Positions 1-59,379 of a DNA stretch of 64,000 nucleotides are shown in pieces; position 1 is the stretch's first letter; the number at the start of each line of letters is the position of its first letter. Origin of the DNA: a virus; the IMG/VR virus record IMGVR_UViG_3300037587_000516, positions 1 through 64,000 of that record; one strand, given 5' to 3'. A model generated the notes under the pieces. It was not told where the DNA came from, did not search any database, and saw only the letters and a list, made by a program, of their open reading frames with translations. Position numbers and translations under genes: made by a program.

Positions 1-558
1 CTGGCTTGTTCTAGTATCGCTTGGTTGGGCATTTGTTTTGTCTGGGGCGGTGATGACATGAAATTACGGTGGTATGTAGAAGAAGAATGGAGAGTAACGG
101 GAGATATTAATTGGGATGGGGAGACTTTTATGTGCCCGCAGCTGGTTGAGAGTGAGCCGGTTCTTCAATACTGGGACGACCAACTACAACTGTGGGAGGA
201 GATTCCTGTTGAGAGGGTGCTGGTTAATACAAAAGAGGACCCTAGATACTAGGAAGTGTAAAGTATGAAAGACAATGATGGATCGGACGAGATTCTACAA
301 AAGATACATAACGGCCATACTATTGTAAGTACTGGGGAATTACGTGCGGGACTATATTGGTCCATGACATATTTCTTTTCAGACGGGACTTCGGTAACGA
401 TGAGAAGCTCAGTAGATCGTGACAAGTGCTGCATTATGCAAGACCCAGACTATATCTTCTAGTGTAATAAGCGAGTGTATTTTAAAAAAATATTTACAGG
501 TGCGCTCTTGCACTGTACCAGGGTCGAGTCGACTCGCAAAACAAAGGTACCCCCCCTC

Positions 559-672
559 CGGCACACTTCTTGCACTAGCAACATCCATACCACACACCTG
601 GCACACTTCTTGCACAAGCAAACCACAGGCCACCAGCCTGGCACACCAATTGCAATAGCAACATCCATACCA
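559..672. repeat. Array of 3 x 40-bp units, each with two convergent sigma54 (RpoN) -24/-12 consensus boxes
   Basis: + strand: CGGCAC-ACTTC-TTGCA 559-574, TGGCAC-ACTTC-TTGCA 599-614, TGGCAC-ACCAA-TTGCA 639-654. - strand: TGGTAT-GGATG-TTGCT 577-592 and 657-672, TGGCCT-GTGGT-TTGCT 617-632. All GG-N10-GC. Confidence 0.8.
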
Positions 673-833
673 CCACACCACCGTCTCATACTGATACGCA
701 GCCCTCACAGCCCCACCACGCAATTCTAACACCAAACCCACACCATTACATACCTCACCACCAACGTGCAGTGGAGAGCCTCTCAAGAGCTAACAGCATT
801 AGTATCAAGCCAGCATCTTTTTACAAATAAAGC

Positions 834-860
834 TAAAGTTCCTTGACCACCAGCCGATAA
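834..860 (+). promoter_or_regulatory. sigma28 (FliA)-type promoter
   Basis: TAAAGTT...GCCGATAA, 15-nt spacer after TAAA; upstream of ORF 902. Confidence 0.8.
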
Positions 861-901
861 GCTTAGTATCTAACAAGAACCACTAACCAAAGGACGTAAC
901 G

Positions 902-1129
902 ATGACTAAAAGAGACGCCAAAGCATTACTAAAGCAAAGCGGGAAGAGCCCAGCAGAGATCAAGTCAATCTATGATAAGCACACCAATCCACTAGGATTC
1001 AGCTTTTCTAACAGTCAATGGGCCAACGCAATAGGGACAGCATTAGCCGAAGCAGTAGGGATACCAGCAGCATTTTCACTAAAAGGACCTTCCGTTGACG
1101 CTATAGCTAATCTAATGGACCAGGACTAA
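902..1129 (+). CDS. hypothetical early protein
   Basis: ORF with AAAGGA RBS, directly downstream of a sigma28 promoter. Confidence 0.7.
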   Translation: MTKRDAKALLKQSGKSPAEIKSIYDKHTNPLGFSFSNSQWANAIGTALAEAVGIPAAFSLKGPSVDAIANLMDQD

Positions 1130-1137
1130 AATAGTCC

Positions 1138-1164
1138 TAAAGTTATCCAGCAGATAGCCGATAA
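1138..1164 (+). promoter_or_regulatory. sigma28 (FliA)-type promoter
   Basis: TAAA-N15-GCCGATAA. Confidence 0.8.
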
Positions 1165-1193
1165 GCTTACTAACACTAACAAAGGAAAGACTA

Positions 1194-1328
1194 ATGGAAA
1201 AACTAATCGCGATTGTAATGGGACTTGTACTAGTAGGAACTATGGTAATGGCGTCTAACGTCTTCGTAGGGCTAAGTGACGGGCGAGTCAATACGGTAGT
1301 GGGCCAATTAGTCAACCCGCATAACTAA
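1194..1328 (+). CDS. 44-aa membrane peptide, paralogue of 5825..5959 (not in ORF track)
   Basis: MEKLIAIVMGLVLVGTMVMASNVFVGLSDGRVNTVVGQLVNPHN; AAAGGA RBS; hydrophobic N-half. Confidence 0.7.
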   Translation: MEKLIAIVMGLVLVGTMVMASNVFVGLSDGRVNTVVGQLVNPHN

Positions 1329-1348
1329 TTTAACCAAAGGAGCGTAAC

Positions 1349-1681
1349 ATGAAAAATACAAAACCAAACCTAATAGGCACAGTTCGATGGTTCGATAAAC
1401 TCAGAGGAGAGGGCCTGATACGTATCAAGTCCACCGGTATAAGTGTACCTATCTACTCCTGTAACTTACCAGGAGCCAAAACTCTATTCCCAGAAACAGC
1501 TTGTGTATATCTCAAACGAGACGAAGAGATCTCAATAGACCACATACATGAATCATGCGGTGCAATCGTAACTTCCAGCGACAATATTCACTTCGATGCC
1601 GAAACATGGGACCGAATCAAGGATCAGAACCTAGCCTTTAAATGCAACGATGATGGAACCACCACCGGATTATTTGCCTAA
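1349..1681 (+). CDS. cold-shock (OB-fold) domain-like protein
   Basis: N-terminal GTVRWFDKLRGEGLI resembles CSD GxVKWFxxxKGFGFI. Confidence 0.6.
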   Translation: MKNTKPNLIGTVRWFDKLRGEGLIRIKSTGISVPIYSCNLPGAKTLFPETACVYLKRDEEISIDHIHESCGAIVTSSDNIHFDAETWDRIKDQNLAFKCNDDGTTTGLFA

Positions 1682-1830
1682 CTCAACCTAACAGGAGCAT
1701 AACATGAAAATGATTAAGGTAGGACGAATCAGCAAAAAAAAGCTTGACCGATTACTAGATTTAGGGTATATAGTTATAGTAAGCGGCTAACGATAAGTAT
1801 AGTATAAGTAACCCAGACTAAGGAGAGAAA

Positions 1831-2097
1831 ATGTTACCATTACTTGTAAGTCCCTTTAAACAGGGCGATATAGTTAACAAAAGTATATCCTGTATCTCTA
1901 AGGGTATTAGTGTTTCCATAGAGCAGGTTGCGGACCTAAATTATAAAGGCACCGTATTTCTATTACACGCTCCAAACCGTCAAGGGTGGGGTTATGGTCG
2001 AGGCGACACTCATTGTAAGGAAATACTATCAGGTATTAAGGACTTCCAAGAGCTAGCCGATAAGTATACCTCATGGCTTAACCTAGGGGGTAACTAA
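1831..2097 (+). CDS. hypothetical protein
   Basis: ORF with AAGGAG RBS. Confidence 0.55.
   Translation: MLPLLVSPFKQGDIVNKSISCISKGISVSIEQVADLNYKGTVFLLHAPNRQGWGYGRGDTHCKEILSGIKDFQELADKYTSWLNLGGN
2037..2063 (+). promoter_or_regulatory. sigma28-type promoter (inside 3' end of ORF 1831)
   Basis: TAAG-N15-GCCGATAA. Confidence 0.65.
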
Positions 2098-2196
2098 GTG
2101 AAAAGACTAATGAAGTGGTTTGAATCATTGAAAGAGCCGACTGTAATTAAGACTAGAGCCGAAATAATTCGGGATTTTGAAGCTTAGGGGGATAGT

Positions 2197-2391
2197 ATGA
2201 ACGACAAACTAAGGTTACAAGTATCAAGGACTCAGATACTAGATACTGTTACAGCCGTTGAAAATAAGACCGGCAAGATGTTTCACGACATACAACCAGA
2301 GACTGACACCGAGATTTATGGGGCAGCTTGGTATGATAGGAAGCGGCTAGATGCCATTAAATACTCATTGCAGAGCTATTATGAGCTATAA
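2197..2391 (+). CDS. hypothetical protein
   Basis: GGGGATAGT-ATG RBS motif shared with neighbouring early genes. Confidence 0.6.
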   Translation: MNDKLRLQVSRTQILDTVTAVENKTGKMFHDIQPETDTEIYGAAWYDRKRLDAIKYSLQSYYEL

Positions 2392-2400
2392 GGGGATAGT

Positions 2401-2562
2401 ATGAACAAGAAATCTAGTATTGAGGTCGAGTATTGTATTGAATGTCCTCACCTTATATCCAACGGCCTTGCTGGTGATACTTGTGCCAAATTAGATCGGG
2501 ACATGTTTCCTAGTGATATACCAGATGATTGTCCGCTGGAGGATTGGGACGATACCGAATAA
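2401..2562 (+). CDS. 53-aa Cys-rich protein, paralogue of 4929..5111 (not in ORF track)
   Basis: CxxC...C...IPDDCPLEDW; GGGGATAGT RBS. Confidence 0.7.
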   Translation: MNKKSSIEVEYCIECPHLISNGLAGDTCAKLDRDMFPSDIPDDCPLEDWDDTE

Positions 2563-2614
2563 GCCCTGACAGGCTCACCACTGGACTTTAGTGGGCAAGG
2601 CATATACTGATGTG

Positions 2615-2656
2615 GGTTTAGGATATAAATGCAGTGACAAGGCTCTGAGGAGCTAG
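2615..2656 (+). repeat. 42-bp intergenic element, second copy at 6366-6407
   Basis: GGTTTnGnATATAAATGCAGT-N5-GGCTCTGAGGAGCTAG, 35/42 identical between copies. Confidence 0.7.
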
Positions 2657-2840
2657 AAAGGGGATAGTATGAGTATGGGTGAGGTAATAGTGTTGTCGAT
2701 TATGTTTCCACTACTGGTGGCAAACACGGCTATACTGGTAAAGGGCGTTATAGAAGTGGAAGGCTCTTCGATAGTGTGGGGGCTTATTGGAAGTTTCGGG
2801 GCTCTTATAGCGATTATTCCATTGATAGTAGGGGGTTAGT

Positions 2841-3035
2841 GTGACTAAGGAAGAGAATGAAGGTATTTTGGCATTGGTAAATGCGGTTCAGAAGCTGACA
2901 AAGATAGTTAGTGAGATAAATGCTAAGGTGCGCACGTTAGAAGAGAGCCGGGATTGTTTAGATGCTAAGATTAAGTCCTTAGATACTAGAATAGAGAATC
3001 ACAAGGCTAGGGTTAGGGAATTCGTAGGGAGGTAG
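2841..3035 (+). CDS. coiled-coil hypothetical protein (MTKEE family)
   Basis: RBS; N-terminus similar to ORF 3037. Confidence 0.6.
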   Translation: MTKEENEGILALVNAVQKLTKIVSEINAKVRTLEESRDCLDAKIKSLDTRIENHKARVREFVGR

Positions 3036-4168: not shown

Positions 4169-4432
4169 ATGCAGACATTAAAAGTAGATAACCATTGGAG
4201 CAAGCCAGGTAATTTTACAGGTAGTGTTGAACATCCTAGTGGAAATAAGCGGTGGTTTTTGAATGGTAAAAGACATAGAGTGGATGGACCTGCTGTTGAA
4301 CATGCTGGTGGATATAAGTTGTGGTATTTGAATGGTGAGAGTATGACAGAAGAAGAGCATACTAGACGTACAGCCTATCTTAGAACTACGCTAGGCAAGC
4401 TTATTTTTAACAAAAAGACTAAAGTTATCTAA
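4169..4432 (+). CDS. HRxDGPA-repeat family copy 1
   Basis: NFTG..E...G.K.WFLNG..HRVDGPA...RTAYLRTTLGKLIF; start moved to ATG 4169. Confidence 0.85.
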   Translation: MQTLKVDNHWSKPGNFTGSVEHPSGNKRWFLNGKRHRVDGPAVEHAGGYKLWYLNGESMTEEEHTRRTAYLRTTLGKLIFNKKTKVI

Positions 4433-4446
4433 CAGGTTGCCGATAA
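4420..4446 (+). promoter_or_regulatory. sigma28-type promoter overlapping 3' end of copy 1
   Basis: TAAAGTT, N15 spacer, GCCGATAA. Confidence 0.8.
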
Positions 4447-5399: not shown

Positions 5400-5745
5400 A
5401 GGTAGTGTTTTGAATTATACTAAGATAGACTATCATTGGAATATGTCGAGCGGTTTCACTGGATGCACAAAGGATTCAATGGGAATCATTGCTTACTCTG
5501 TTAAGGGCAGGTTTCACCGAGAAGGTGGACCCGCCGTGATATATCCAGATGGTATAAAGAGGTGGTACCAGCATGGCGAATTACACAGACTTGACGGACC
5601 TGCAATTGAACATGAAGGACGTGAATACCGAACCGCATACTACCTTAATGGCCAATTTGTTACGGTAGAAGAGCATACTTTAAGGACAGCCTGGACTAAA
5701 ACAACACTAGGCAAATTAATTTTAAAAAAGACTAAAGTAATTTGA
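5380..5745 (+). CDS. HRxDGPA-repeat family copy 3 (divergent, two repeats; start uncertain)
   Basis: FHREGGPA, LHRLDGPA, RTAWTKTTLGKLI. Confidence 0.75.
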   Translation: MYTEISRGSVLNYTKIDYHWNMSSGFTGCTKDSMGIIAYSVKGRFHREGGPAVIYPDGIKRWYQHGELHRLDGPAIEHEGREYRTAYYLNGQFVTVEEHTLRTAWTKTTLGKLILKKTKVI

Positions 5746-5759
5746 CAAGACACCGATAA
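5733..5759 (+). promoter_or_regulatory. sigma28-type promoter overlapping 3' end of copy 3
   Basis: TAAA-N15-ACCGATAA. Confidence 0.75.
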
Positions 5760-7588: not shown

Positions 7589-7615
7589 TAAAGTTTTTTG
7601 GACAGATGCCGATTA
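7589..7615 (+). promoter_or_regulatory. sigma28-type promoter
   Basis: TAAAGTTT, N15 spacer, GCCGATTA. Confidence 0.7.
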
Positions 7616-9519: not shown

Positions 9520-9546
9520 TAAAGTTTCCCCGCAATACTCCGATAA
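9520..9546 (+). promoter_or_regulatory. sigma28-type promoter
   Basis: TAAAGTTT, N15 spacer, TCCGATAA. Confidence 0.75.
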
Positions 9547-10369: not shown

Positions 10370-10567
10370 ATGGCAAAAGTAATTGTAAAAGTACTAGGAA
10401 GCGCACCAAGAGAAATTGATGCAGATTCAGTAGGTGAGTTGAAGTCTGAGTTGGGACTTGATTCTTATTCGGCAAGTGTTAACGGAGATCCTGCCGATAG
10501 CAGCACAGAGCTATCCGAAGGTCAGTTAGTGACATTCGCGCCTAGCGTAAAAGGCGGCGCTAACTAA
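10370..10567 (+). CDS. ubiquitin-like (beta-grasp, ThiS/MoaD-like) protein with GG + 2-aa tail
   Basis: 65 aa; SVGELK..LGL...ASVNG......ELSEGQLVTFAPSVKGG-AN. Confidence 0.85.
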   Translation: MAKVIVKVLGSAPREIDADSVGELKSELGLDSYSASVNGDPADSSTELSEGQLVTFAPSVKGGAN

Positions 10568-10589
10568 CAGAGCCGAAATTATTTTGTGG

Positions 10590-10607
10590 GGGGATAATTC
10601 TATCCCC
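10590..10607 (+). terminator. hairpin between Ubl and E2-like genes (attenuator/stabiliser)
   Basis: GGGGATA-ATTC-TATCCCC stem-loop. Confidence 0.5.
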
Positions 10608-10633
10608 TTAAATTTTAACATCGTGGGGATGAT

Positions 10634-11734
10634 ATGAATGAGTCAGATAATTCTGCAATCGCAGAAAATAGCGAGGTTTTCTTACCTCAGATAATCAAGA
10701 GCGGGTTTGATATGTTTAAGTCCCTTGATGCCAAAATTCGATTAGAGCAAATTAATAAAATTACATATATTGATACCATCTCTAGACAACTAGATCAAGA
10801 TGTTAGTAGTGTAAACTTATTTGAGCTATTTCCAAATAAAGATAGACTGTTTACTTGTAACGAAAGTGAAATAAACAAGATACTGGTTAACTTTACTCCA
10901 GAAACAAAAACAGTAGTGAGAGAGTTACAAAAACTATCATTAACACAAAAAGAAAATATAAAAAAGGCATCCAATTTTTGGAACAAAGACTTTAGAACAA
11001 GAACAGTTCACACAATGGACCGTTGTAATATGGACATTAGAGACCTTACTAGCAGAGTAAATGCTTTGGTAGTAGAACGAAATAAACAGCACCATATACT
11101 AGAGCAATTATCAGATAATGACGGCTCACTTCTAACTAAACAAATTGAAGAAATACTAGAGACAAAAAAATATAAGCTTGCTAGAATAGACGACAGCAAG
11201 ATAGTATTTGAACTACTAGATGACGTGATAAACACGTTTAAAAATACTCGTGCTGGGATTGATTTGCGAGTGAATCTAGGGACATTTACTATTACAGTTA
11301 AATGGGACGGTATGTATTCCGAATTGTCTGGTTTGTCCAATAATACGTGCGTCGGAAGTTTTGTCCATCCTCACTATGATAGACATCCTTGTTTGGGAAA
11401 TTTACAGGAAATTATGCAGGAGGCGCAGAAAGATAAGAACTTAGTGAAAATTATGGAAATTAATGAAACGCTATTGTTAAATTACAATGATGGGAATCCG
11501 TATAAGCCACTAGCAGCCTTCGCAGCACAAAGTAAACAGGTCCAGCCGAATGGTGAGGTTCTTAAGATTGAGGAAGCAGAGCGATGTAGTGAATATGGTC
11601 CAGGCGACTATTATAATTTCGAGTGTGGTGAATGTGGCTATGAGAATGAAATTCAATTTGACGGAGATGGCTATTACGAAGGTAGTTGTGGTGAATGTGA
11701 TGATTATTTTGATCTAGCAGCAAGTGATTTATAG
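10634..11734 (+). CDS. prokaryotic E2-like (UBC-fold) protein with N-terminal coiled coil and C-terminal Zn ribbon
   Basis: HPH-x5-CLG (Cys253) matches the E2 HPN/H...C pattern; CGEC-x16-CGEC tail; operon context. Confidence 0.65.
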   Translation: MNESDNSAIAENSEVFLPQIIKSGFDMFKSLDAKIRLEQINKITYIDTISRQLDQDVSSVNLFELFPNKDRLFTCNESEINKILVNFTPETKTVVRELQKLSLTQKENIKKASNFWNKDFRTRTVHTMDRCNMDIRDLTSRVNALVVERNKQHHILEQLSDNDGSLLTKQIEEILETKKYKLARIDDSKIVFELLDDVINTFKNTRAGIDLRVNLGTFTITVKWDGMYSELSGLSNNTCVGSFVHPHYDRHPCLGNLQEIMQEAQKDKNLVKIMEINETLLLNYNDGNPYKPLAAFAAQSKQVQPNGEVLKIEEAERCSEYGPGDYYNFECGECGYENEIQFDGDGYYEGSCGECDDYFDLAASDL

Positions 11735-11745
11735 GGGGTTATGTT

Positions 11746-12564
11746 ATGGATAAAATTATATTAGGTAGAGAAGTATATGATCAAATTATGTATTACGTTA
11801 ACAAAACTAATTTTGAGATTAGTGGGCTAGGCGCTGTTGAAATTATTGATGGCTTTCCCGTTGTAACAAAGGTTTACTTATTAGATCAAGAAAATAGCGC
11901 GGCAGAAACTGAAATGGACGGCGAGGCAATTACTAAGCTAATGTATGAGCACCATATATCAGGACATCCGGGGGAATTAAAGTTCTGGTGGCACAGTCAT
12001 GTGAATATGTCAGTATTCTGGTCTACTACGGACATGACGACAATTGGTGAGCTAACAGAAAATGGCTGGTTCATTCACGGGGTATTTAATAAAGATTATG
12101 ATTACAAGTTTGCATATACTACTAATGACCCATGTCCAATTATGGTCGACGATATTGAAATGGAAATTGACGAAAATTTGGTTAACTCGTCGATACTCAG
12201 TATATTAGGGGATCTTGCTGTTGAAAATAAAAAACTAGAGGGCGAGTATGATAGTGAATTTGCGGCTAAGGTTACTATAAAAACCTATGTGCCCACCGTT
12301 ACTGACTATTCAAACTTCTACCCTAAGCATAGCGGGGCTACTACTTACACTCCAGACTGGAATAAGGAGATTTTAACATCAGGACAGGATTTGTATGATC
12401 CAGACGAGGTTAAATCAACGGGAGCATTTACGGAAGCGGGGTTTAGGGAACTGTGTGCCGCAGGGTATAGCGATGAAGAGATTCGGTTTTATAATGCGCA
12501 AGATGCATTTTGTTTGGACGAAGTTAATGAACTAGAGATGGCAAGTTGGGTGAATAATACATGA
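11746..12564 (+). CDS. JAB/JAMM metallo-isopeptidase
   Basis: E24 and H83-S-H85-x7-S93-xx-D96 JAMM motif. Confidence 0.85.
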   Translation: MDKIILGREVYDQIMYYVNKTNFEISGLGAVEIIDGFPVVTKVYLLDQENSAAETEMDGEAITKLMYEHHISGHPGELKFWWHSHVNMSVFWSTTDMTTIGELTENGWFIHGVFNKDYDYKFAYTTNDPCPIMVDDIEMEIDENLVNSSILSILGDLAVENKKLEGEYDSEFAAKVTIKTYVPTVTDYSNFYPKHSGATTYTPDWNKEILTSGQDLYDPDEVKSTGAFTEAGFRELCAAGYSDEEIRFYNAQDAFCLDEVNELEMASWVNNT

Positions 12565-13226
12565 AAAATATATTTGGGGACCACGAGCATTTAGTGAGGC
12601 AATTAGACTTAATCCCATTGGATTGTCTAGATAAGAAGATTAACATAATTGGGGCTGGAGCAATTGGAAGTTTCACGGCGCTAAGCTTAGCCAAAATGGG
12701 GTTTAAGGATATTACAGTATTTGATGATGATACTATAGATGTTGTCAATCTTAACTGTCAATTCTTTAGGCATACTGACATTGGAAAGCCTAAAGTTGTA
12801 GCATTGCAAGAATTAATCCATGACTTTACTGGAATTACCATTGAAATAGTTAATGATAGGTGGACCGGAGCTAAGTTAAATGGCATAGTTATTGCCGCAG
12901 TAGATAGTATGGCTGTTAGAAAACAGATCTTTGAAACGCATTATAAAAACGGGTTTCAGACTGATTTAGTGATAGATCCTAGGATGGGAGCAGAAGTGGC
13001 TCTATTAGCCTCATACAAGCCTTTAAGTATAGAGGAAGGGCAAACGTATAGCAAGACTCTATATAGCGACGAGGATGCCGTACAAGAGCCCTGCACCGCC
13101 AAAAGCTCTATGTATTGCTGTCTAAGTCTATCGGGCATGGTTTGTTCAATGGTTAAGGCGTTTGTAACTGGCAATGAGTTTCCTAGGTGGAAAACCTATG
13201 ACATTGCTAAATTTGACATGGTATAG
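12561..13226 (+). CDS. ThiF/E1-like Ubl-activating enzyme
   Basis: RQ arginine finger, GAGAIGS nucleotide loop, DDD..NLNCQ, GKPKV, AVDS..VR; candidate catalytic Cys178 (EPCTA). Confidence 0.9.
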   Translation: MKNIFGDHEHLVRQLDLIPLDCLDKKINIIGAGAIGSFTALSLAKMGFKDITVFDDDTIDVVNLNCQFFRHTDIGKPKVVALQELIHDFTGITIEIVNDRWTGAKLNGIVIAAVDSMAVRKQIFETHYKNGFQTDLVIDPRMGAEVALLASYKPLSIEEGQTYSKTLYSDEDAVQEPCTAKSSMYCCLSLSGMVCSMVKAFVTGNEFPRWKTYDIAKFDMV

Positions 13227-13818: not shown

Positions 13819-13862
13819 GCATGGTGGGGTAACCTCCCCACAATAACCCCGCCATGCGTTTT
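13819..13862 (+). terminator. stem-loop closing the Ubl transcription unit
   Basis: GCATGGTGGGGT / ACCCCGCCATGC 12-bp stem followed by GTTTT. Confidence 0.6.
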
Positions 13863-14075
13863 CTAGGAGGCTACTATGCAAAAATCGTGCCAGGGAATAT
13901 GTACACTCTTTTATATGTTATACAACAGTTTAGTATATTAACATATGGGGGATTTAATTAGGGTTTACTTTAAGCATAAGAAGAGCAATAAGAAGTTGAT
14001 AACCATTATCATCTTACTAGTATTTGTTCTCATACCGTATACAGTCATAGTACACAACTTTTTTTAAAATAAAGC

Positions 14076-14104
14076 TTGACAACATTTTGAAAGTCTAGTA
14101 TAAT
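14076..14104 (+). promoter_or_regulatory. sigma70 promoter
   Basis: perfect TTGACA-N17-TATAAT. Confidence 0.85.
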
Positions 14105-15347
14105 AGTAAATGGAGAGCCAATGATATATATAATAATATCTATTATAGCATTTGGATTAATAGTATTACTTGAGTATCTAGGAGTATTAGAGTTAATGAT
14201 ACTTATATTCATAGTAACTGTGATTAAAGTTTTCGGCTCTTAAGCATAGCTTTGTCCAATTCTGGAGGGAATGAAATGAAACGAGAAATGACAACACATG
14301 AAGACCTGGAGAGATACCTACTAGCTAACCCAATGATGGGCGATTACAGGACCAGAGTACAACAGTCACTAATGTTGTTTCATGATAGACCATTAATGAG
14401 GTTTGAGCTAATACTGGATATAACTATCGTCTTATTAGAGGAAATATCTGATCAGATAAATGAACTAAAGCCAAAATTTGGAGTGGAGGAAAAATGAAAG
14501 GTTTAAAAATAACAGTTGAACAGACGATAACGAGCCTAATAACAATAACAGCAACCGCTCCTGGGTTTAATGAAACCCACTATACTTCGGCGTTAACACT
14601 TATGTTCTTTAGTAAGTCCGAAAAACATTTGCGCAGAGATATAGAAAAGATAAAAGATGGCATAAAAGGCCGATATAAAGTATGCACAGAGTCTAGTGAG
14701 GAAAAATGATTGAAATACTAACAGTTATGTGTATAATTAGCGTTAACCTTACTAATACTGATACTAGTATGATAGTAACGCAAGGTAACGCAATCAATAC
14801 CGATGGCGACTACTGGACAGTAGACTTCTATGAGAGCCTGTCCGAAGGTGGTTATAACATGGATTTGAATACTGGAGCCCAAACTGTTAATTCTAACGAA
14901 TGTAATATTGTAAAGTTACGAAAGGCTAAGTAATGAAAATACAAAAAGGACAGCGGGTATTTTTAGAGGCGAACAATTCTCCATATGGGGGCAAATTCCT
15001 AACAGGAATGGTCACTGAGCTATATGTAAAAGATACTGATAAGATGGCCGAAGTGTTTCTGGACCAGTCCATAACCATTCACGTAAAGCAGGATAAACTA
15101 ACCGCGATTGAGAGCACCAAATGAGTGATAAATTAATACTAGACCCGCAGTTAATTATGAACGACCTACTAAGAGATAACGAGCGATTAATTATTGAAAA
15201 TAATGCTTTACAAGGTAGTATTAGTAGGTTAGAATTATTATTAGATAGAGTTAGGGAAATTGGAAGCGATGCCATAACAGGCCGCGAAGAATTTAGACTG
15301 GAAAATGAGAAGTTAAAAGCTGAATTAATGGGAGTTAATACTAAGCA

Positions 15348-15623: not shown

Positions 15624-16669
15624 ATGTAGAAGAGATGAAAAAAGTCATGCCACTATTAATGAAGTCCAACATCGTTCCATTCATTTGGGGTAGATCCGGT
15701 GTTGGGAAAACAGAAGTAATTAGGCAAATAGCCAAATCGCTTGATATGGAGCTAATATACTTAACATTTGCCGCTGTAGAGGATGTTGGGGATATTATCG
15801 GATTGCCGTATGAGAAAATGGTCAACGGTGAAATGACCACTGGACACATGCCTCCGGATTGGTTTCCAACCGAAGGCAATAAGTTGATCTTTATTGATGA
15901 ATTTAACCGGGCTAAGCCACAGATACTTCAAGCCATGTTTCCATTTGTATTAGAGGGCAGACTTCATACTCACAAATTGCCTGAGAATTGCCATATTGTA
16001 GTTGCAGGTAATCCCCCAACAGAAGATTACGACGTAACTAGTATGGAGGACAATGCGCTGTTTTCTAGATTCTGCCATATGAACTTTACTCCTAGCGTTG
16101 AAGAGTGGGTTGTGTATATGAAGGAGCAAAATAGAAACCATGATGTTATCACATTCTTTAATACTAATCAGGACTTAATTTCCTCAGTAGCAAAGGACTT
16201 TGATATTAGAACGGTTTGTAAAAATGATCGGCGTAACGCTGAAATGCTGGCCAAATTTATTGATGATAATGACCCACATGATTCAGTAACTCAGTTAGTT
16301 GCATCCGGGTTGCTAGGTCCAGAGCTAGGCGTTAAATTCATGGCGCATGTGAAAAGTAATAGCGAGCGGATTAGCTCAGAAGAAATACTGAATAATTATA
16401 GTATTAGGACCAGAGATAAAGTCCGCAGAAACTTTACTAGAGTTGACATTTTAAACAAGGGTATTGAGGATGCGCTAACCACAATCAAGGCTTGTAAAGA
16501 GATACAGGAAAGTCAAGCAAGGAACATGGCAGCGTTTCTAACAGAACTGCCGAATGACCTAGCCTGGAAGGGAATTAAAGCATTCCTAGAGTTGGGCCAT
16601 GATAATTGTTTGAAGTTCATTGGTGAAAATGAGGACTTAGTTAAGAAATTTAAAGATAGAACAGCATGA
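15620..16669 (+). CDS. MoxR-like AAA+ ATPase
   Basis: Walker A GRSGVGKT, Walker B IFIDEFNRA, AGN sensor, ALFSRF. Confidence 0.85.
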   Translation: MNVEEMKKVMPLLMKSNIVPFIWGRSGVGKTEVIRQIAKSLDMELIYLTFAAVEDVGDIIGLPYEKMVNGEMTTGHMPPDWFPTEGNKLIFIDEFNRAKPQILQAMFPFVLEGRLHTHKLPENCHIVVAGNPPTEDYDVTSMEDNALFSRFCHMNFTPSVEEWVVYMKEQNRNHDVITFFNTNQDLISSVAKDFDIRTVCKNDRRNAEMLAKFIDDNDPHDSVTQLVASGLLGPELGVKFMAHVKSNSERISSEEILNNYSIRTRDKVRRNFTRVDILNKGIEDALTTIKACKEIQESQARNMAAFLTELPNDLAWKGIKAFLELGHDNCLKFIGENEDLVKKFKDRTA

Positions 16670-16929
16670 AGGTGTTTAAAGGGTGGTTTGGTGATAGACC
16701 GGATAATTTTACAGGGATTGTTGAAAATCCGGATGGTGCTAAGCGTTGGTGCTTGAATGGTGAATGGCATAGAGTTGATGGACCTGCTGTTGAACATGCT
16801 GATGGTGATAAGTATTGGTATTTGAATGGTGAGTTTTTGACAGAAATAGAGCACACTAAAAGAACTGCTTATTTAAGAACTACCTTGGGCAAGATTATTT
16901 TTAATGAGCATTTTAAATTGGAGGGGTAA
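16666..16929 (+). CDS. HRxDGPA-repeat family copy 7
   Basis: family motifs; ATGA / TAATG overlaps. Confidence 0.85.
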   Translation: MKVFKGWFGDRPDNFTGIVENPDGAKRWCLNGEWHRVDGPAVEHADGDKYWYLNGEFLTEIEHTKRTAYLRTTLGKIIFNEHFKLEG

Positions 16930-21621: not shown

Positions 21622-22417
21622 ATTTATACTAATTTCGGACTCGCATTACGGGTTAGATGGCAAGACCCATGCCAAGCATTTGAAGTTCTGGAAGCGGGTA
21701 GAAAAAGCTATTAAGGACGAGAATGTTCAAGCGCTGCTTTGGGCTGGAGACATAGCGTCTTTTAGGCAGAGACACTTTTATAAGAGCTTGGAAATGGCTA
21801 GGCAGTATGTTAGTGTCCCAATTTTATTGGTAAAGGGAAATCATGATTTTTACTGTGGCAAAGACCCAAAAGATCGCGGGGTTGAGTTTTCTTCTCTAGA
21901 AGAAGTAAACGATAGGCATAAGAAATGGATGACTAAGTTTGACATTCATCATTTAGAAGATGCTCCTTATATAGTGGATGATGTGATAGTGTGCGGCTTT
22001 GACGGCTGGTATGCGGTTCCAAATCCGGGCACCAACTGTAAGTATTGGATTCCCAAAAACGTCCAAGGGCAGCCGTTTGTGAGCCAGTATCTGGTAACAA
22101 AAGCATGGAGAGACCTCCAGAATTGCCTAGACGTTGATACTGGTTCATTTAGAAAGTCAGTGTTAGTTACGCACCACAATCCTTATGGCTTTAGTCAGCT
22201 GGGCAAAGTTAAAACGGTTGACGAATTAATGGAGGAAGGTGTTGAATATACTGGGCATGGGGCTAATATAAAGTTCTTGCCGGAGATTAGAGAGAAGTTT
22301 GATGTGATGTGCTGCGGGCATACTCATGGGTATAAGAATGATTGTGATGAAGGCATTCAGATTTATAACTGCGGGTCTGATTACAATAAACCTAAGTTTT
22401 TAGTATTTGAGGTGTGA
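21614..22417 (+). CDS. calcineurin-like metallophosphoesterase
   Basis: SDSH, AGD, GNHD, THH, GHTH. Confidence 0.85.
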   Translation: MVKFILISDSHYGLDGKTHAKHLKFWKRVEKAIKDENVQALLWAGDIASFRQRHFYKSLEMARQYVSVPILLVKGNHDFYCGKDPKDRGVEFSSLEEVNDRHKKWMTKFDIHHLEDAPYIVDDVIVCGFDGWYAVPNPGTNCKYWIPKNVQGQPFVSQYLVTKAWRDLQNCLDVDTGSFRKSVLVTHHNPYGFSQLGKVKTVDELMEEGVEYTGHGANIKFLPEIREKFDVMCCGHTHGYKNDCDEGIQIYNCGSDYNKPKFLVFEV

Positions 22418-22418
22418 T

Positions 22419-22685
22419 GTGAAAGTGTTTAAAGGGTGGTTTGGTGACGAACCAGATAATTTCACAGGAATTGTTGAAAATCCAAATGGACATAAGTATT
22501 GGTTTTTGAATGGTAAAAGGCATAGAGTTGATGGACCTGCTATTGAGTGGTCAGATGGTAGAAGTTGGTCGTGGTGGTTGAATGGTGAGTATATGACAGA
22601 AGAAAAGCACACTAAAAGAACAGCGTGGTGTAGAACTACATTAGGTAAGTTGATATTGAATGAGCATTTTAAATTGGAAGATTAA
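22419..22685 (+). CDS. HRxDGPA-repeat family copy 11
   Basis: family motifs; GTG start 1 nt after upstream stop. Confidence 0.85.
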   Translation: MKVFKGWFGDEPDNFTGIVENPNGHKYWFLNGKRHRVDGPAIEWSDGRSWSWWLNGEYMTEEKHTKRTAWCRTTLGKLILNEHFKLED

Positions 22686-29309: not shown

Positions 29310-29645
29310 ATGAAGATATTTAAAGGGTGGTTTCGTGAAAGACCAAAAAACTTCACAGGAATAGTCGAAGATACAGGCGGCGATAAGTATTGGTATTTGA
29401 ATGGTAAGTGGCATAGAGTTGACGGACCTGCTTTTGAGTGTAAAGACGGCAGTAAGGTGTGGTATTTGAATGGGGAAAGGCATAGAGTTGACGGACCTGC
29501 TATTGAGTGGTCTGGTGGTGGTAAGTATTGGTGTTTGAATGGTGAATATATGTCAGAAGAAGAGCATTATAAAAAGACAGCTTACCTTAGGACTACTTTG
29601 GGTAAGCTAATATTTAATGAGCATTTTAAATTGGAGGAAGGGTGA
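29310..29645 (+). CDS. HRxDGPA-repeat family copy 14 (two repeats)
   Basis: family motifs; downstream of TTGACA 29275. Confidence 0.85.
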   Translation: MKIFKGWFRERPKNFTGIVEDTGGDKYWYLNGKWHRVDGPAFECKDGSKVWYLNGERHRVDGPAIEWSGGGKYWCLNGEYMSEEEHYKKTAYLRTTLGKLIFNEHFKLEEG

Positions 29646-31018: not shown

Positions 31019-32140
31019 ATGAGACTATCACACAGCGCCATTCAAAAGTACTTAACGTGCGCCGCTCAATATGATGCCCACTATAATCTTAAGATCCGCT
31101 CTGAGAAGTTAGGAAGTCCTTTGTTGTTTGGAACTGCTGTGGATGAAGCCCAAGGCATTATGCTGCTTAGTAAGATGGATGATGCCGATTTAACGGACGA
31201 AGAACGGGCAACTATGGACAGAGATCCGTTTGACGTATTTGATTACCACTTAACAATGAAGGTAATTAAGCAAGATATTGGACCAGAGGATATAAGAACC
31301 TCTCCATATATTGAGTATTTTGGAAGTGATTTTGAGCCCGGGGTTCTTTTAGAAGAAGACTGGGTTAAATTAGAGCAGTTCATAAAAAATGCCGGGTACG
31401 AGGCAGATGATCCGGAAGAGTTGTTTACAATACTAAAAGGTAAGATTAAAGAAGGAGACGCATCATTAACAGATCAGTGTTATTTTAACTATGCATCGTG
31501 GTTATCGTTGAGAAGAAAAGGGCACTTAATGCTTGAGTTGTACCGCGATAAGATCATGCCGTTGATTGACAGGGTTTATAGTATTCAAAGGAAGGTTGAT
31601 TTGCCAAACGAAAATGGCGATGAGATCATTGGGTATATTGATATTGAGGCATCTTTAGTTGGACATGAGGGTATTTTCACAATTGATAATAAAACTTCTG
31701 GGCCAAAGTATAAGCAGAGTGATATAAATGACAAGGGTCAATTAGTATTATACGATGAGTTTACCCAGAATGGTCAAGCTGCATATATAGTGCTACTGAA
31801 AAAGCCCAAGTTAATTAAACACAAAACCTGCTTGTCTTGTGAGGGTACTACTACTAGATCAGTTAAAAAGTGCGCGGCAGAGGTAGAAGGAGTTCGTTGT
31901 AATGGCGAATTCTCCAATGAAATCGAGATAGAGCCCGAAATGCAGTATCAGATTTTAACTGGTGACATAGATGAAGAAAAAAAAGATTTGCTATTTGAAC
32001 AGATTGATGATATACTAAGTAAAATTGAAGCGAAAGAGTTTCCTCAGAATAGAGATGCTTGTTTTCAGTTTGGAAAACCTTGCGCATATTTTAACTACTG
32101 TAGAAATGGTAGTATGGAAGGTTTGGGGAAAGTAAAATGA
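31019..32140 (+). CDS. PD-(D/E)XK exonuclease (RecB/Cas4-like)
   Basis: LSHSAI..Y..C, GYID, IDNKTS, QL.LY, C-terminal C..C...C cluster. Confidence 0.85.
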   Translation: MRLSHSAIQKYLTCAAQYDAHYNLKIRSEKLGSPLLFGTAVDEAQGIMLLSKMDDADLTDEERATMDRDPFDVFDYHLTMKVIKQDIGPEDIRTSPYIEYFGSDFEPGVLLEEDWVKLEQFIKNAGYEADDPEELFTILKGKIKEGDASLTDQCYFNYASWLSLRRKGHLMLELYRDKIMPLIDRVYSIQRKVDLPNENGDEIIGYIDIEASLVGHEGIFTIDNKTSGPKYKQSDINDKGQLVLYDEFTQNGQAAYIVLLKKPKLIKHKTCLSCEGTTTRSVKKCAAEVEGVRCNGEFSNEIEIEPEMQYQILTGDIDEEKKDLLFEQIDDILSKIEAKEFPQNRDACFQFGKPCAYFNYCRNGSMEGLGKVK

Positions 32141-32481
32141 AGGTGTTTAAAGGGTGGTGTAAGGATAGACCACATAAATTCACGGGAATTGTTGAAACTC
32201 CAGGTGGCACTAAGTATTGGTATTTGAATGGTGAATTTCATAGAGTTGACGGACCTGCTATTGAATATTCTAAGGGTGGTAAGTCTTGGTATTTGAATGG
32301 AGAAAGACATAGAGTTGACGGGCCTGCTATTGATTGGACAGATGGAAGTAAGTCTTGGTTTTTGAATGGTGAGTATATGACAGAGGAAGAGCATGCTAAA
32401 AGAACAGCTTATCTTAGGACTACTCTTGGTAAGTTGATATTTAATGAGCATTTTAAACTGGAGGAAAACAGTGTCAACTAA
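32137..32481 (+). CDS. HRxDGPA-repeat family copy 15 (two repeats)
   Basis: family motifs. Confidence 0.85.
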   Translation: MKVFKGWCKDRPHKFTGIVETPGGTKYWYLNGEFHRVDGPAIEYSKGGKSWYLNGERHRVDGPAIDWTDGSKSWFLNGEYMTEEEHAKRTAYLRTTLGKLIFNEHFKLEENSVN

Positions 32482-41740: not shown

Positions 41741-41801
41741 TTTACACAAAAAGCTTTACAAAGGCGAATAGCTGTAGTACATTAGTATATGGGAGTTGGA
41801 T

Positions 41802-42140
41802 ATGAAAACAATAAAAGTGGACGACAATTGGCATAAGCCAGATAAATTCACAGGAATTGCTGAATATCCTAATGGCGATGAGTATTGGTATTTGAATGGT
41901 AAATATCATAGAGTCGACGGACCTGCTATTGAATATGCTGGTGGTGGTAAGTATTGGTATTTGAATGGTAAAATGCATAGAGTTGGCGGACCTGCTGAGG
42001 AATGGTCAGATGGTAGTGAGTTTTGGTTTTTGAATGGTGAGATGCTAACAGAAGAAGAGCATGATAAAAGAACAGCCTATTTAAGAACTACATTAGGCAA
42101 ACTAATATTCAATGAGCATTTTAAGTTGGAGGACTCGTGA
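41802..42140 (+). CDS. HRxDGPA-repeat family copy 17 (two repeats)
   Basis: family motifs; downstream of TTTACA-N17-TACATT 41755-41783. Confidence 0.85.
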   Translation: MKTIKVDDNWHKPDKFTGIAEYPNGDEYWYLNGKYHRVDGPAIEYAGGGKYWYLNGKMHRVGGPAEEWSDGSEFWFLNGEMLTEEEHDKRTAYLRTTLGKLIFNEHFKLEDS

Positions 42141-46470: not shown

Positions 46471-46876
46471 GCGTCTGCACCCAGACGCGAAAATACCCCA
46501 AAAAGCCCACCAAGGGGATGCTGGATTTGATCTAGTAGCTGTCACAAAAGAACTAACCCCACAAGGTTATATTGAAATGAAAACCGGCCTTGGCTTCGAG
46601 ATCCCTCCGGGCCACATGGGGTTGCTGTTTCCAAGGTCTAGTATATCAAATACTAAAATGACCTTGACCAATTCTGTCGGTGTACTTGATGAGAATTTTA
46701 GAGGAGATGTTAGCTTTAGATTTAAGCCCGCAACTTCTGGAAAAGGTGGGTATGAAATAGGAGACAAAATAGGCCAACTAGTAATCATGCCTTATCCTAG
46801 TATTGAGTTAGTTGAAGTTGATGAGCTAGATGAAACTGATCGTGGAACTGGTTCCTATGGGTCGTCTGGAAAATGA
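46448..46876 (+). CDS. dut: trimeric dUTPase
   Basis: AGFDL, PRSS, GVLDENFRG, IGQL, RGTGSYGSSG. Confidence 0.92.
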   Translation: MKMQVKIKRLHPDAKIPQKAHQGDAGFDLVAVTKELTPQGYIEMKTGLGFEIPPGHMGLLFPRSSISNTKMTLTNSVGVLDENFRGDVSFRFKPATSGKGGYEIGDKIGQLVIMPYPSIELVEVDELDETDRGTGSYGSSGK

Positions 46877-47142
46877 AAACAATTAAAGTAAAGTATTGGC
46901 TTGATAGACCTTGTAATTTCACGGGGATTGTTGAATGTTATAATGGAGATAATATTTGGCTTTTGAATGGTAAAAGGCACAGAGTAGACGGACCTGCTAG
47001 TGAATGTGCCGGTGGTGATAAGTATTGGTTTTTGAATGGTGTTCGTATGACAGAAGAAGAGCATTATAAAAGGACAGCGTGGACTAGGACTACATTAGGT
47101 AAATTGATATTCAATGAGCATTTCACATTAGACGGAGAGTAG
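46873..47142 (+). CDS. HRxDGPA-repeat family copy 21
   Basis: family motifs. Confidence 0.85.
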   Translation: MKTIKVKYWLDRPCNFTGIVECYNGDNIWLLNGKRHRVDGPASECAGGDKYWFLNGVRMTEEEHYKRTAWTRTTLGKLIFNEHFTLDGE

Positions 47143-53338: not shown

Positions 53339-55282
53339 CTATTTTACCAGTTGGTATTTACCTTTGGTTGCATTCCATTTATACTTTTTTCCATCTTTTT
53401 CAACTTCATCGCCATATGGGGCAGCTTTTTGTTGTGGTGCTTCTGGAGCATCCATTGTTGATTGAAAAAGGTCTCTCAAATCTTCATTAATGGCAACCCC
53501 TTCCTTGTCTTTACGGGTGAAGATTGGCTGTAATGTGGTATACATTTTACGTTGTGTACCAGTTAGGTTCTCTTTCCAGTAATCACGCTGGCCTATTAAC
53601 TGCTCTTCAAAGTGTTGTATAAATTCTTTGTTTAAGTATGTTTCTGGAGATCCCATTAAATACTGCTTTATTGAATTCGCATCTCCAGCAATGGTACTTG
53701 GAATTAATCCGTGAATAGCATCTCTGGTAGCTTGGTTTCCGCCTTGTAATGTAGACGCCATAACCGTAGCTAATTCTTCCGCAATCTGCTCAGAAGGTAC
53801 AAACTTACCTTTTCTAATACTTTCAATTACTCGTAGTCCATCTCTAGACAATGTTTCTCTTAGTAGAGACTTTGCGTACACTGATCTAGCACCTTTAAGT
53901 CCAGCAAGCTTTTCTGATATATCCCTAACTGCCTTTTCATCCTTCATTCGAACACCAGCTTGGTGTCTAGCATCCGTTTCTTTTCGCTTCGCTTTACTTT
54001 CTTCAATTCTAGTACGGGCTAATTCTTTTGCTGATGCTGCTTGCGCTAGTTTAAACTCAGTTGGGTTTCTATTAACTAGAAGATGCCCACGAGATTCAAC
54101 ATCATGCTCCGCCCAAGTATCAGGAACCTTTATACCAAACGCAGATTCTAAATTTGCCCTAGCTCGAACAGATGCTCCATCATCCGCATCCATTGAATAC
54201 TTACTTGCCTTCTTTTGTTTGCCTTGTAGTTGTTTCAGTAAACTAAGCTTACCTTTTAGTGCTTGTACATCTGGACCAGGAGCCATCTCATCAAGAGTCG
54301 GAGCTTTATATGTTTGAGCAGGTGCTCTAACTTCAGCACCTAGTGCAGCAGAGGCTCCACCAGCAGCGTATTGAGCGCCAAACTTAGATAACCCTTCTAC
54401 AACCTTTAGCAACACCTGTTTCTTTTTTGCTTCATTTCTGCTTTGTGATGCGTCTTTGTATTCATTTAGTATGTCTTGGTACTCTTTTTGGACATCAATG
54501 TTATCCATCTGTTTTATTGTTTTGTATGATTGAAGGTCTTGCTCATTGGCATTTACTTCAGTTAATATATCTTTATCTATATCGTCTAAGATACCATCAT
54601 CCTGCTCTTCAACTGGAGCAATTGGTTGCTCAATTGGCTGTGCTGCTGGGGCAACTGTCTGAGGCGGCTCCCTATCAAAAGGACCAAACTCATCATTGTC
54701 ATCGACGAATCCATCAACTAACCCGCCTTCTTGAAATGATGGTTGTGCAGTTGGTTGAAGAGATGATACTTCTACCGGTTGTGTAGGTTGAACAATTGGT
54801 TGCTCAACAGGAGCTTCAATAGGCTGTTCTAAAGGCTGTATTCTAGACTTTACGTTCTTCAAATAAGCATCCACAGTAGGCAAAGTCTCTTCCTTACCTA
54901 ATAGTTCTCTATTTATTGTTTTAGTAACGCCTTGATTGTGTGCTTTAATTGCCATGTCATTTAATTGATCAGGAGTTAATTGGATACCGTTCTTTTTGGC
55001 TACCCTTCTAATTCGTTGTTTGTTATCAACATACAACGCCGCCCCTGCTAGTTTATTAAAATCAGGATTCTCTAGTAGTTTAGGAAGGTCTTTCTTTTTA
55101 ACATTCTTTCCTTCCCATTTTTTAGGAAGTAATCCTTGTTTATACAATCCCCTTGCTGTTTCTTTTTGGATCTGCATAAGACCAATAGATTCCCCAGCAT
55201 CTCCTATAACAGTTGGTCTGCCACTGGATTCTTGTTGAACTATGGACTGCATTAATCTAGGATCAATATTATCATTTGCCAT
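53339..55282 (-). CDS. virion protein with N-terminal lytic transglycosylase (SLT) domain
   Basis: QESSG, IGLMQI...TA, AHNQG, Y..NV. Confidence 0.85.
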   Translation of the reverse strand: MANDNIDPRLMQSIVQQESSGRPTVIGDAGESIGLMQIQKETARGLYKQGLLPKKWEGKNVKKKDLPKLLENPDFNKLAGAALYVDNKQRIRRVAKKNGIQLTPDQLNDMAIKAHNQGVTKTINRELLGKEETLPTVDAYLKNVKSRIQPLEQPIEAPVEQPIVQPTQPVEVSSLQPTAQPSFQEGGLVDGFVDDNDEFGPFDREPPQTVAPAAQPIEQPIAPVEEQDDGILDDIDKDILTEVNANEQDLQSYKTIKQMDNIDVQKEYQDILNEYKDASQSRNEAKKKQVLLKVVEGLSKFGAQYAAGGASAALGAEVRAPAQTYKAPTLDEMAPGPDVQALKGKLSLLKQLQGKQKKASKYSMDADDGASVRARANLESAFGIKVPDTWAEHDVESRGHLLVNRNPTEFKLAQAASAKELARTRIEESKAKRKETDARHQAGVRMKDEKAVRDISEKLAGLKGARSVYAKSLLRETLSRDGLRVIESIRKGKFVPSEQIAEELATVMASTLQGGNQATRDAIHGLIPSTIAGDANSIKQYLMGSPETYLNKEFIQHFEEQLIGQRDYWKENLTGTQRKMYTTLQPIFTRKDKEGVAINEDLRDLFQSTMDAPEAPQQKAAPYGDEVEKDGKKYKWNATKGKYQLVK

Positions 55283-58972: not shown

Positions 58973-59379
58973 TTACCTATAATCATCACTGTAAAATCGT
59001 ACTTATTATCAGCCTGTAACCCGCTAATATTGTTTACCTTTACCACAAGTTTAGACCTTGTTGCTGAAATAAAGGGCGTAGACGTAGGAAACAGGCTCCC
59101 GTCGGTCCTATTTACTGCTGAAATGACAATAAACCCAGCAACATTGGTCTGTGTAACCTTAAACAGATTATTACCAACTGGGGTCCCGGAAGAATCAACA
59201 GTCATACTAAATGTCGTAACCTCTTGATTTAAGTTATCAAAATCAATATTTCCATTCATTGTACCAACAACTTGGTCCATAAATCTATTAAGGGTAAACG
59301 CCAGTTTGTCGATGACATCGTGGTATTTCTTAGGATAATCCTCTTTTAGTATACGCCTTATGTTATCTAACTGTGGCAT
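58969..59379 (-). CDS. hypothetical virion/tail protein
   Basis: coupled to tail gene; NGNIDFDN motif. Confidence 0.55.
   Translation of the reverse strand: MPQLDNIRRILKEDYPKKYHDVIDKLAFTLNRFMDQVVGTMNGNIDFDNLNQEVTTFSMTVDSSGTPVGNNLFKVTQTNVAGFIVISAVNRTDGSLFPTSTPFISATRSKLVVKVNNISGLQADNKYDFTVMIIGN

Follow-up and report, generated by a model that had tools for sequence, protein, structure and literature searches.

What is a tandem array of face-to-face promoter-like boxes doing near the end of a phage genome? Among bacterial promoters, to our knowledge, only the sigma-54 class is silent unless an ATPase opens it, and no phage is known to us in which such promoters make up the early or terminal control region. 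The array considered here lies at positions 559-672 of IMG/VR virus record IMGVR_UViG_3300037587_000516 (87,126 bp, 39.7% G+C (GC)), the first 64 kb of which constitute the window analysed. An earlier note, made from the sequence alone, had described the array as six convergent sigma-54 (RpoN) boxes with an exact 40-bp period. Read from the sequence, 559-672 consists of three units of 40 bp, each comprising a + strand box, a 2-nt gap and a - strand box (Table 1). Tandem Repeats Finder returned a period of 40 with 3.0 copies at 560-679, and a separate repeat search gave start-to-start distances of 40 and 40. The 33-nt double-box pattern matched the 64-kb window three times at 0 mismatches and matched none of 100 dinucleotide-preserving shuffles, while the half-box TGGCAC-N5-TTGC has four 0-mismatch matches in the 87-kb genome, two of them inside the array, and none in any of 30 shuffles. 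The array is non-random in sequence, and its description as six boxes in three 40-bp units is borne out by the repeat detection and by consensus-pattern matches that are absent from all shuffles. GG-N10-GC is present in all six boxes, as had been stated. The accompanying claim that the N5 spacers vary holds in part: the left spacers of the + boxes differ (ACTTC, ACTTC and ACCAA), and the right halves of units 1 and 3, on the - strand, are identical. Relative to TGGCAC-N5-TTGC the three + boxes carry 0-1 mismatches and the three - boxes two each.

Identification of the boxes as sigma-54 sites was examined by comparison with other viruses and with cellular genomes. The bipartite sigma-54 consensus is TGGCA(C/T)(G/A)-N4-TTGC(A/T), with the invariant spacing GG-N10-GC (PMC3844500; this paper and PMC4591121 are cited throughout from excerpts). 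The double-box pattern with a 2-nt gap was found in 84 IMG/VR stretches and the reversed control pattern in 0. A stricter version, which matches 51 of these 84 loci, had 0 matches in 596 Gb of prokaryotic genomes; with the gap allowed to range from 1 to 5 nt, the same 596 Gb yielded eight matches, mostly on metagenome-bin contigs of 2-15 kb, some of which carry arrays. The array-bearing small contigs in Gemmatimonadota and Alphaproteobacteria metagenome-assembled genomes (loci L349 and L344; L and G numbers are our own handles) are probably phage DNA. Among 59 distinct viral copies, the positions not fixed by the pattern follow the consensus, with GG preceded by T in 53, GGCAC followed by G or A in 56, TTGCA followed by T in 38, and a mirror half that reads TGGCA(T/C)G. 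This consensus of unfixed positions resembles the Salmonella sites supported by chromatin immunoprecipitation in the excerpted part of PMC3844500. The assignment of the boxes to the RpoN -24/-12 type is thus well supported by comparison.

The geometry of the double box is less constant than its sequence. A variable-gap scan of IMG/VR gave at least 124 stretches, and among the matches listed (80 stretches, 71 distinct units) the halves are separated by 1 to 8 nt or more, most often by 2 or 5; counts of distinct units listed are 5, 19, 11, 6, 20, 2, 1 and 4 for gaps of 1 to 8 nt, respectively. Such variation argues against a single dimeric protein of fixed geometry and fits two independent monomeric recognitions. 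Array periods across phages are 26, 40-42 and 54 bp and share no common helical phase. The motif itself is constant over nine near-complete genomes that span 31-63% GC, which fits recognition by a highly conserved host factor. At the level of sequence we regard the link to sigma-54 as secure, because both halves match the 16-bp bipartite consensus, the motif is constant irrespective of GC content, boxes also occur alone, the gap varies and the spacers do not pair. Binding by the host sigma-54 polymerase is a likely prediction. The sites are of a known promoter type; what is new is their virus-associated arrangement and their position.

Where the motif lies with respect to genes was assessed at 47 loci, using crude open reading frame (ORF) calls and with near-duplicate loci included. 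The copies are mostly intergenic, 21 of the 47 being between divergent genes, 22 between co-directional genes and four between convergent genes. Each of the nine near-complete genomes has its boxes gathered at one locus, in most cases either a divergent junction or a long non-coding gap. Among cultured phages, Silvanigrella phage CP017838.1 has no array, and HTVC115P and HTVC103P (Pelagibacter), CRP-9 and CRP-1 (Roseobacter) and HMO-2011 (Puniceispirillum) have scattered single near-matches and zero pairs, so that no cultured phage or named host is linked to the motif among the isolates checked. Neither mirror-image sigma-54 boxes nor phage sigma-54 arrays were described in the literature searched, subscription journals and supplements lying outside the search. 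The excerpted part of PMC7693777 reports a Pectobacterium phage protein with weak HHpred similarity to sigma-54 and nothing more.

Relatives were sought through the large terminase subunit TerL. A search with a single TerL protein found none, and a search with an alignment of five TerL sequences found 80. Four carriers of the motif are true relatives of the phage, with portal proteins 71, 52, 44 and 51% identical, TerL 69-41% identical and DNA polymerase 61% identical. Boxes number 0.228 per kb on the side of TerL that has the array and 0.036 per kb elsewhere, and box clusters occur in 16 of the 33 loci that have at least 5 kb of flank on that side. Within the family 53 boxes point toward the early genes and 24 away from them. 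A run of at least six C lies within 60 nt upstream (in the orientation of the window) of 18 of 25 family clusters, whereas all three control placements (a G-run upstream, a C-run or a G-run downstream) gave 0 of 25. The related phages retain the array as a module, a C-tract followed by boxes mostly directed toward early genes, and the GG-N10-GC spacing on which the earlier note had staked the sigma-54 identification is conserved in the homologous arrays. As a separate observation, the tract in relatives reads (G)GTA followed by 7-16 C, its length being variable, and always lies on the upstream side of the array (L053, L056, L068, L120, L121, L127, L130-L132, L165, L168 and L339).

Individual family members vary this plan. 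Three loci (L127, L130 and L144) have only same-direction boxes, at a 26-bp period. L053, L068 and G038 have an additional, solitary box 37-60 nt upstream of their first early ORF, an ORF whose ribosome-binding site is good, and comparison with L053 and L068 shows that the stretch between the array and the first early promoter of our phage holds a decayed remnant of this box, with GTGCA retained and GG gone. In genomes G038 and G044 a 2-3 kb part of the early region carries 9-11 boxes, some in each orientation. A leftward gene that has a strong ribosome-binding site begins 178 nt to the left of the G003 array, and both box orientations therefore face genes in that genome; likewise, where pairs lie between divergent genes each half faces a gene. 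Antisense intergenic boxes adjoining terminators also recur, at 13877-13892 in this genome and in L131 and L132. The earlier note's objection, that boxes set face to face would hardly make sensible promoters, is weakened by the divergent loci, the family polarity and the single boxes at promoter distance.

The array had also been placed beside the probable genome end. The start of the contig is no real end: it is an exact 127-nt end overlap, of the k-mer-sized type that assemblers leave when closing a circle, and hence an assembly artefact, and the IMG/VR direct terminal repeat (DTR) label derives from this overlap and nothing else. A probable physical end nevertheless lies close by, near 244. 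One public run, from a marine sediment metagenome that may be the source sample, holds the stretch, and no RNA run is among the holders. The Logan contigs of this run (evidence of less weight than raw reads) have breaks at 244 and 2714, and a separate contig spans the interval. Its depth is 159, compared with 57 for 1-273 and 95.5 for 2685-3000, the uneven flanks indicating noisy coverage, and adapter-like loose ends are one-sided, solely before 244 and solely behind 2714. It is quite probable from this evidence that the genome is linear with a 2.47-kb direct terminal repeat, its left end being at about 244-246 and its right end at about 2714. In that case a virion DNA would contain the array twice, and the array would start about 315 bp in from the left end; with the end taken from the contigs of that one run, the boxes span distances of about 315-410 bp from it, the + boxes pointing inward. 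The putative repeat carries about eight small early ORFs, and its right boundary falls inside ORF 2669-2839.

Copies of the palindrome in other records are also frequent near contig ends (17 of 80 within 500 bp, 5.1 expected). We discounted this enrichment as a sign of genome ends because C-tracts and repeats can break assemblies, as illustrated by G042 and G044, the contigs of which split inside their arrays. Of the 15 boxes that G042 (36,563 bp) has at no more than one mismatch, 14 lie near the contig ends, up to about 200 bp from the start or 560 bp from the end, the exception being the box at 1986; the contig was probably split inside one array of about 750 bp. The conserved C-tract may explain the assembly breaks at arrays. 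The DTR labels of G026 and G027 correspond to overlaps of 109 and 127 nt and are uninformative on true ends.

Taken together, the early-gene polarity, the single boxes at promoter distance, the terminator-then-box arrangements of L131 and L132 and the divergent-junction contexts lead us to favour, tentatively, a model in which the array provides three high-affinity docking sites for the host sigma-54 polymerase that most likely act as enhancer-dependent early promoters. The array would be located about 315 bp inside the probable left end, within the terminal repeat of about 2.5 kb, after the C-tract and before the early genes. Each unit would present a near-consensus -24/-12 box toward the early genes and a weaker mirror box over the transcript start of the first. 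One polymerase at a time would occupy a unit, in either direction, since the halves overlap each other's melting and start region, a point that draws on published polymerase footprints. Rightward boxes would fire into the early region and leftward boxes would fire where a leftward gene exists, as in G003. Both firing and the source of activation are what we infer here, and the activator could be a host enhancer-binding ATPase that works from solution or else a yet-unrecognised phage factor. Sigma-54 holoenzyme forms stable closed complexes that require one of the bacterial enhancer-binding proteins (bEBPs) as well as ATP for opening; most bEBPs bind 80-150 bp upstream, and those of a few bacteria lack a DNA-binding domain and activate any sigma-54 promoter (PMC3844500).

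Comparison with known promoters shows where this model has precedent. Like the -24/-12 promoters of Salmonella glnK, pspA and rpoH in the excerpts of PMC3844500, the phage boxes have the bipartite consensus and are intergenic, and the single boxes of relatives lie 37-60 nt before ORFs. Unlike those promoters, the phage boxes stand face to face 1-8 nt apart with each start site inside the other box, the units form tandem arrays, neither an enhancer nor an activator gene was found in the genome that carries them, and the double form is almost only viral. Warman and colleagues reportedly described, in 2021, bidirectional sigma-70 promoters that owe their origin to a symmetric -10 element and often lie between divergent genes. 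There, too, one symmetric stretch of DNA could serve polymerase both ways; however, the transcripts of the sigma-70 promoters diverge from overlapping -10 hexamers, whereas the phage promoters would be of sigma-54 type, facing each other with a transcript overlap of about 20 nt. Phage T7 has three tandem sigma-70 promoters, A1, A2 and A3, near its leading end, which are about 125 bp apart, need no activator and pull the DNA in. The array resembles these in comprising three tandem inward units a few hundred bp from the probable end on the early-gene side, in a podovirus whose internal virion proteins are T7-like, and differs in that its boxes are of sigma-54 type, 40 bp apart and mirror-paired, and in that their firing is predicted only.

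Several results weigh against early promoter activity. The sigma-54 activator domain PF00158 was over threshold in 0 of 40 different records, this genome included (this genome, G000, and four records searched at E <= 0.1; 36 records, including 13 of at least 90% completeness, at E <= 0.001; one record common to both sets). The nearest match in this genome, below the cut-off, is a MoxR-like ATPase (E 0.04, 9.4 bits). Sigma54_DBD was found in none of the five records searched, again including this genome, and no RNA polymerase or sigma factor was found in this genome by Pfam scans of 125 ORF translations or a PHROGs scan of 45. No enhancer site for the array was recognised. The leftward boxes face just about 315 bp of DNA and the + strand ORF 265-462, and a rightward transcript would begin with about 230 nt of untranslated, C-rich, G-poor RNA, presumably a good substrate for Rho. 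The boxes are few per genome and clustered at a single locus, other carriers having 1-5 perfect boxes, and the packing at 26-40 bp is tighter than that of known tandem promoters and looks more like a binding array. The near-absence of the double form from the 596 Gb of cellular genomes also speaks against such a role. Finally, the nine palindrome-bearing phages share DNA polymerase (7/9), TerL (7/9) and an internal virion protein (6/9), so that they form one broad assemblage in which a shared phage protein is possible.

A further difficulty is that the first early gene has its own sigma-28 (FliA)-type promoter, which is followed by seven more such motifs. The sigma-28 consensus is TAAAGTTT-n11-GCCGATAA (PMC2859248). 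Motifs of the form TAAA-N15-GCCGATAA, with no more than one mismatch, number eight, all of them on the + strand of the first 15 kb and confined to the early region, against a chance expectation of about 0.4 in the whole genome by our own arithmetic; they are mostly intergenic, with three of the eight starting inside an ORF by crude call. The relative L121 likewise has a sigma-28-type motif about 100 nt past its array. With promoters of their own, the early genes of this phage do not need the array for expression. The co-occurrence of sigma-54-type and sigma-28-type motifs suggests that early expression may be tied to the flagellar sigma cascade of the host.

A bolder version of the early promoter model, which we consider improbable, is that in a broad group of virulent, uncultured podophages some of the early programme depends on host sigma-54 polymerase and a new kind of opener. 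In that version an injected virion protein or an immediate-early protein would open the closed complexes, with no phage AAA+ enhancer-binding protein involved, and the face-to-face pairs, placed at the entering end, would serve as compact early promoters for both directions. If true, it would break the rule that sigma-54 promoters always need an ATPase of the bEBP type.

The strongest alternative to promoter activity is that the units hold closed complexes that were never meant to open. With a mirror half placed over the DNA that must melt, each unit would lock itself, and the array could work in one of three ways. As a sink it would titrate sigma-54 after genome replication and blunt host responses that depend on sigma-54; where the late and early units meet it could be a roadblock or insulator in both directions; and on the first-entering DNA it could serve as a ratchet or anchor. 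The decoy, cap and anchor ideas of the earlier note keep their place here because no phage sigma-54 activator was found in the 40 records. That stable closed complexes form without an activator is established (PMC3844500, PMC4591121). In E. coli and Salmonella, non-canonical intragenic and antisense sigma-54 sites bind holoenzyme and are transcriptionally inactive, their proposed roles being interference, antisense RNA and faster promoter search, the last also proposed for extra binding sites near a promoter (PMC4591121, PMC3844500). The sites described in these excerpts likewise serve no obvious gene, but they are single, mostly sub-consensus and scattered, whereas the phage sites are consensus-grade, paired and arrayed at one regulatory locus. 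Complexes that do not fire would also accord with the rarity of perfect-consensus double sites in cellular genomes (0 by the strict pattern, eight with gaps of 1-5 nt), with packing as tight as possible (40 bp here, 26-54 bp elsewhere), with the restriction to one locus per genome, with retention of the array although early genes use sigma-28-type promoters, with the recurrence of antisense boxes beside terminators and with the distance of about 315 bp from the probable entering end. A symmetric trap, however, has no need of the family polarity or of arrays with a single orientation, and does not account for the single boxes at promoter distance before early ORFs in relatives. Three to six sites per entering genome are too few to titrate anything, a 26-bp period precludes simultaneous binding by neighbouring holoenzymes, and a roadblock would be without obvious use at the many divergent junctions. 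We regard non-firing complexes as rather unlikely, yet as a serious rival and less unlikely than the other alternatives.

It is quite unlikely, in our assessment, that the sites belong to another protein, whether a phage protein (early or injected) or a host protein, that recognises or mimics sigma-54 boxes, with the array as an operator, a set of replication-origin iterons or a packaging signal near the terminal repeat. Like iteron, operator and packaging arrays, this array consists of several repeats of about 34 bp at short regular spacing in non-coding DNA near a genome end; here they are close-packed at a single locus by the early region and stand beside GGTACC and the C-tract. The palindrome-bearing phages have TerL, DNA polymerase and internal virion protein in common, and in the sub-family of this phage the right half is conserved beyond the needs of sigma-54, ATCCATACCA occurring twice in the window, twice in L053 and also in L121. 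In one group (L009, L012, L022, L028, L036, L041 and L043, including a 223-kb record) the palindrome lies 35-40 nt upstream of a TTGACA-type -35 element and is preceded by a conserved AAAATCTTTTT motif. The double box can thus sit just upstream of a sigma-70-type promoter, a typical position for a regulator. Against this, the match of both halves to the 16-bp sigma-54 consensus is too close for the sites to have nothing to do with sigma-54, and a fixed dimer would tolerate neither a gap of 1-8 nt (among the matches listed) nor lone boxes. In contrast to iteron and operator arrays, gap and period vary between phages without helical phasing, the repeat is the consensus of a host sigma factor and no cognate phage protein was found: within 1.5-kb flanks of the motif no protein family is common to different phage groups, and none matches this genome. 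Phage proteins and their sites usually co-diverge, but this motif is invariant over genomes of 31-63% GC.

Least credible, and very improbable, is a structural element such as a DNA cruciform or hairpin (as in N4-type hairpin promoters) or a structured RNA, which we rejected because, although each unit is an imperfect palindrome and a few copies in the 223-kb phage are nearly perfect, mirrored spacers pair less than expected and if anything avoid pairing (complementarity 83, compared with 105.5 +/- 7.4 in column shuffles, 1999 of 2000 shuffles being at or above the observed value), no stem longer than 4 bp is predicted in the fold of 540-700 (161 nt, -15.3 kcal/mol) and the array has no Rfam match (the sole match at E <= 1 in 1-3000 being SECIS_4 at 1220-1252, far below its gathering score).

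Mirror-image, consensus-grade sigma-54-type sites thus occur at one control locus across many uncultured phages with no activator gene aboard. They may be early promoters that work in both directions, fired by an activator of the host or of a new kind, or they may trap sigma-54 polymerase on units that lock themselves; under either reading, phages would be exploiting or incapacitating a host sigma factor by an unstudied route. The motif also provides a simple sequence signature for locating the control region of such phages in metagenomes, and its pairing with sigma-28-type motifs hints that early expression in the phage studied here may follow the flagellar programme of the host.

Table 1. 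Positions of the array, its flanking elements and other features of the genome
Feature	Position	Strand	Sequence or remark
Unit 1 + box, CGGCAC-N5-TTGCA	559-574	+	CGGCACacttcTTGCA
Unit 1 leftward box, TGGTAT-N5-TTGCT, weaker, 2 mismatches	577-592	-	top strand AGCAAcatccATACCA; - strand TGGTATggatgTTGCT
Unit 2 consensus box, TGGCAC-N5-TTGCA	599-614	+	TGGCACacttcTTGCA
Unit 2 leftward box, TGGCCT-N5-TTGCT, weaker	617-632	-	- strand TGGCCTgtggtTTGCT
Unit 3 consensus box, TGGCAC-N5-TTGCA	639-654	+	TGGCACaccaaTTGCA
Unit 3 leftward box, TGGTAT-N5-TTGCT, weaker	657-672	-	- strand TGGTATggatgTTGCT
GGTACC and C-tract (7 C at 550-556), directly 5' of first box	546-558	+	from sequence; conserved array partner in relatives
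C/A-rich, G-poor untranslated stretch, array to first early promoter	673-833	+	from composition
Sigma-28 (FliA)-type promoter, TAAAGTTC-N11-GCCGATAA	834-860	+	42 nt before first early ORF, 902-1129
Sigma-28-type motifs (all eight)	834-860, 1138-1164, 2037-2063, 4420-4446, 5733-5759, 7589-7615, 9520-9546, 14504-14530	+	
Lone perfect sigma-54-type box	13877-13892	-	TGGCACGATTTTTGCA; intergenic, points against + strand genes
Probable direct terminal repeat, ~2.47 kb	244-2714	.	contig breaks, depth step, loose ends
Small ORFs matching BiPBP_C	16666-16929, 22407-22685, 29310-29645, 32137-32481, 41796-42140, 46873-47142		

The immediate surroundings of the array are distinctive in composition. It lies inside a 438-bp non-coding gap, its + boxes 248-343 nt upstream of the first early ORF, and within a 300-bp C-rich, G-poor island (GC skew -0.36 to -0.69 and GC 51-57% over 501-800). 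A perfect 12-bp palindrome, CGAGTCGACTCG, is found at 525-536 and an inverted repeat, GTGC-N6-GCAC, at 502-514; both lie 25-55 nt upstream of the first box and are possible regulator sites.

The genome as a whole is that of a virulent podovirus-like phage, as judged from the PHROGs and Pfam scans described above. Its structural genes, which encode an SU10/P22-type portal, an SU10-type capsid, TerL and internal virion proteins (one with an SLT domain at 53339-55282), occupy the - strand at 51-79 kb. The internal virion protein that palindrome-bearing phages have in common is encoded at 59379-62840. All other genes are on the + strand and include a family A DNA polymerase, a primase-helicase, ribonucleotide reductase and many HNH endonucleases. 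The boundary between the sigma-28-type early block and the replication genes lies at 13826-14104, where a terminator-like hairpin (GTGGGGTAACCTCCCCAC), the lone - strand sigma-54-type box and a perfect TTGACA-N17-TATAAT promoter (14076-14104) follow one another. No strong sigma-70-type site was found in 1-3000 or anywhere before 14076, and the best are at 14076-14104 and 14710-14737. A nucleotide search of 1-3000 against 50,697 phage records gave no match, and the genome has no transfer RNA genes. The best protein matches are to a Flavobacterium phage for DNA polymerase (47.7%) and to the Silvanigrella phage for TerL and capsid (about 30%); the sigma-70 and sigma-28 motifs argue, by inference, against a host among the Bacteroidota.

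Two further groups of genes were noted. A ThiF/E1-like protein (12561-13226; PF00899, E 1.8e-20) is encoded downstream of a small ORF with weak similarity to ThiS (10370-10567), and the interval 10370-13226, which also contains two unassigned proteins of 366 and 272 amino acids, may be a ubiquitin-like conjugation module. Scattered among the replication genes are six small ORFs with the same weak Pfam match, BiPBP_C (E 5e-4 to 1e-2), which look like a dispersed family of paralogous small proteins.

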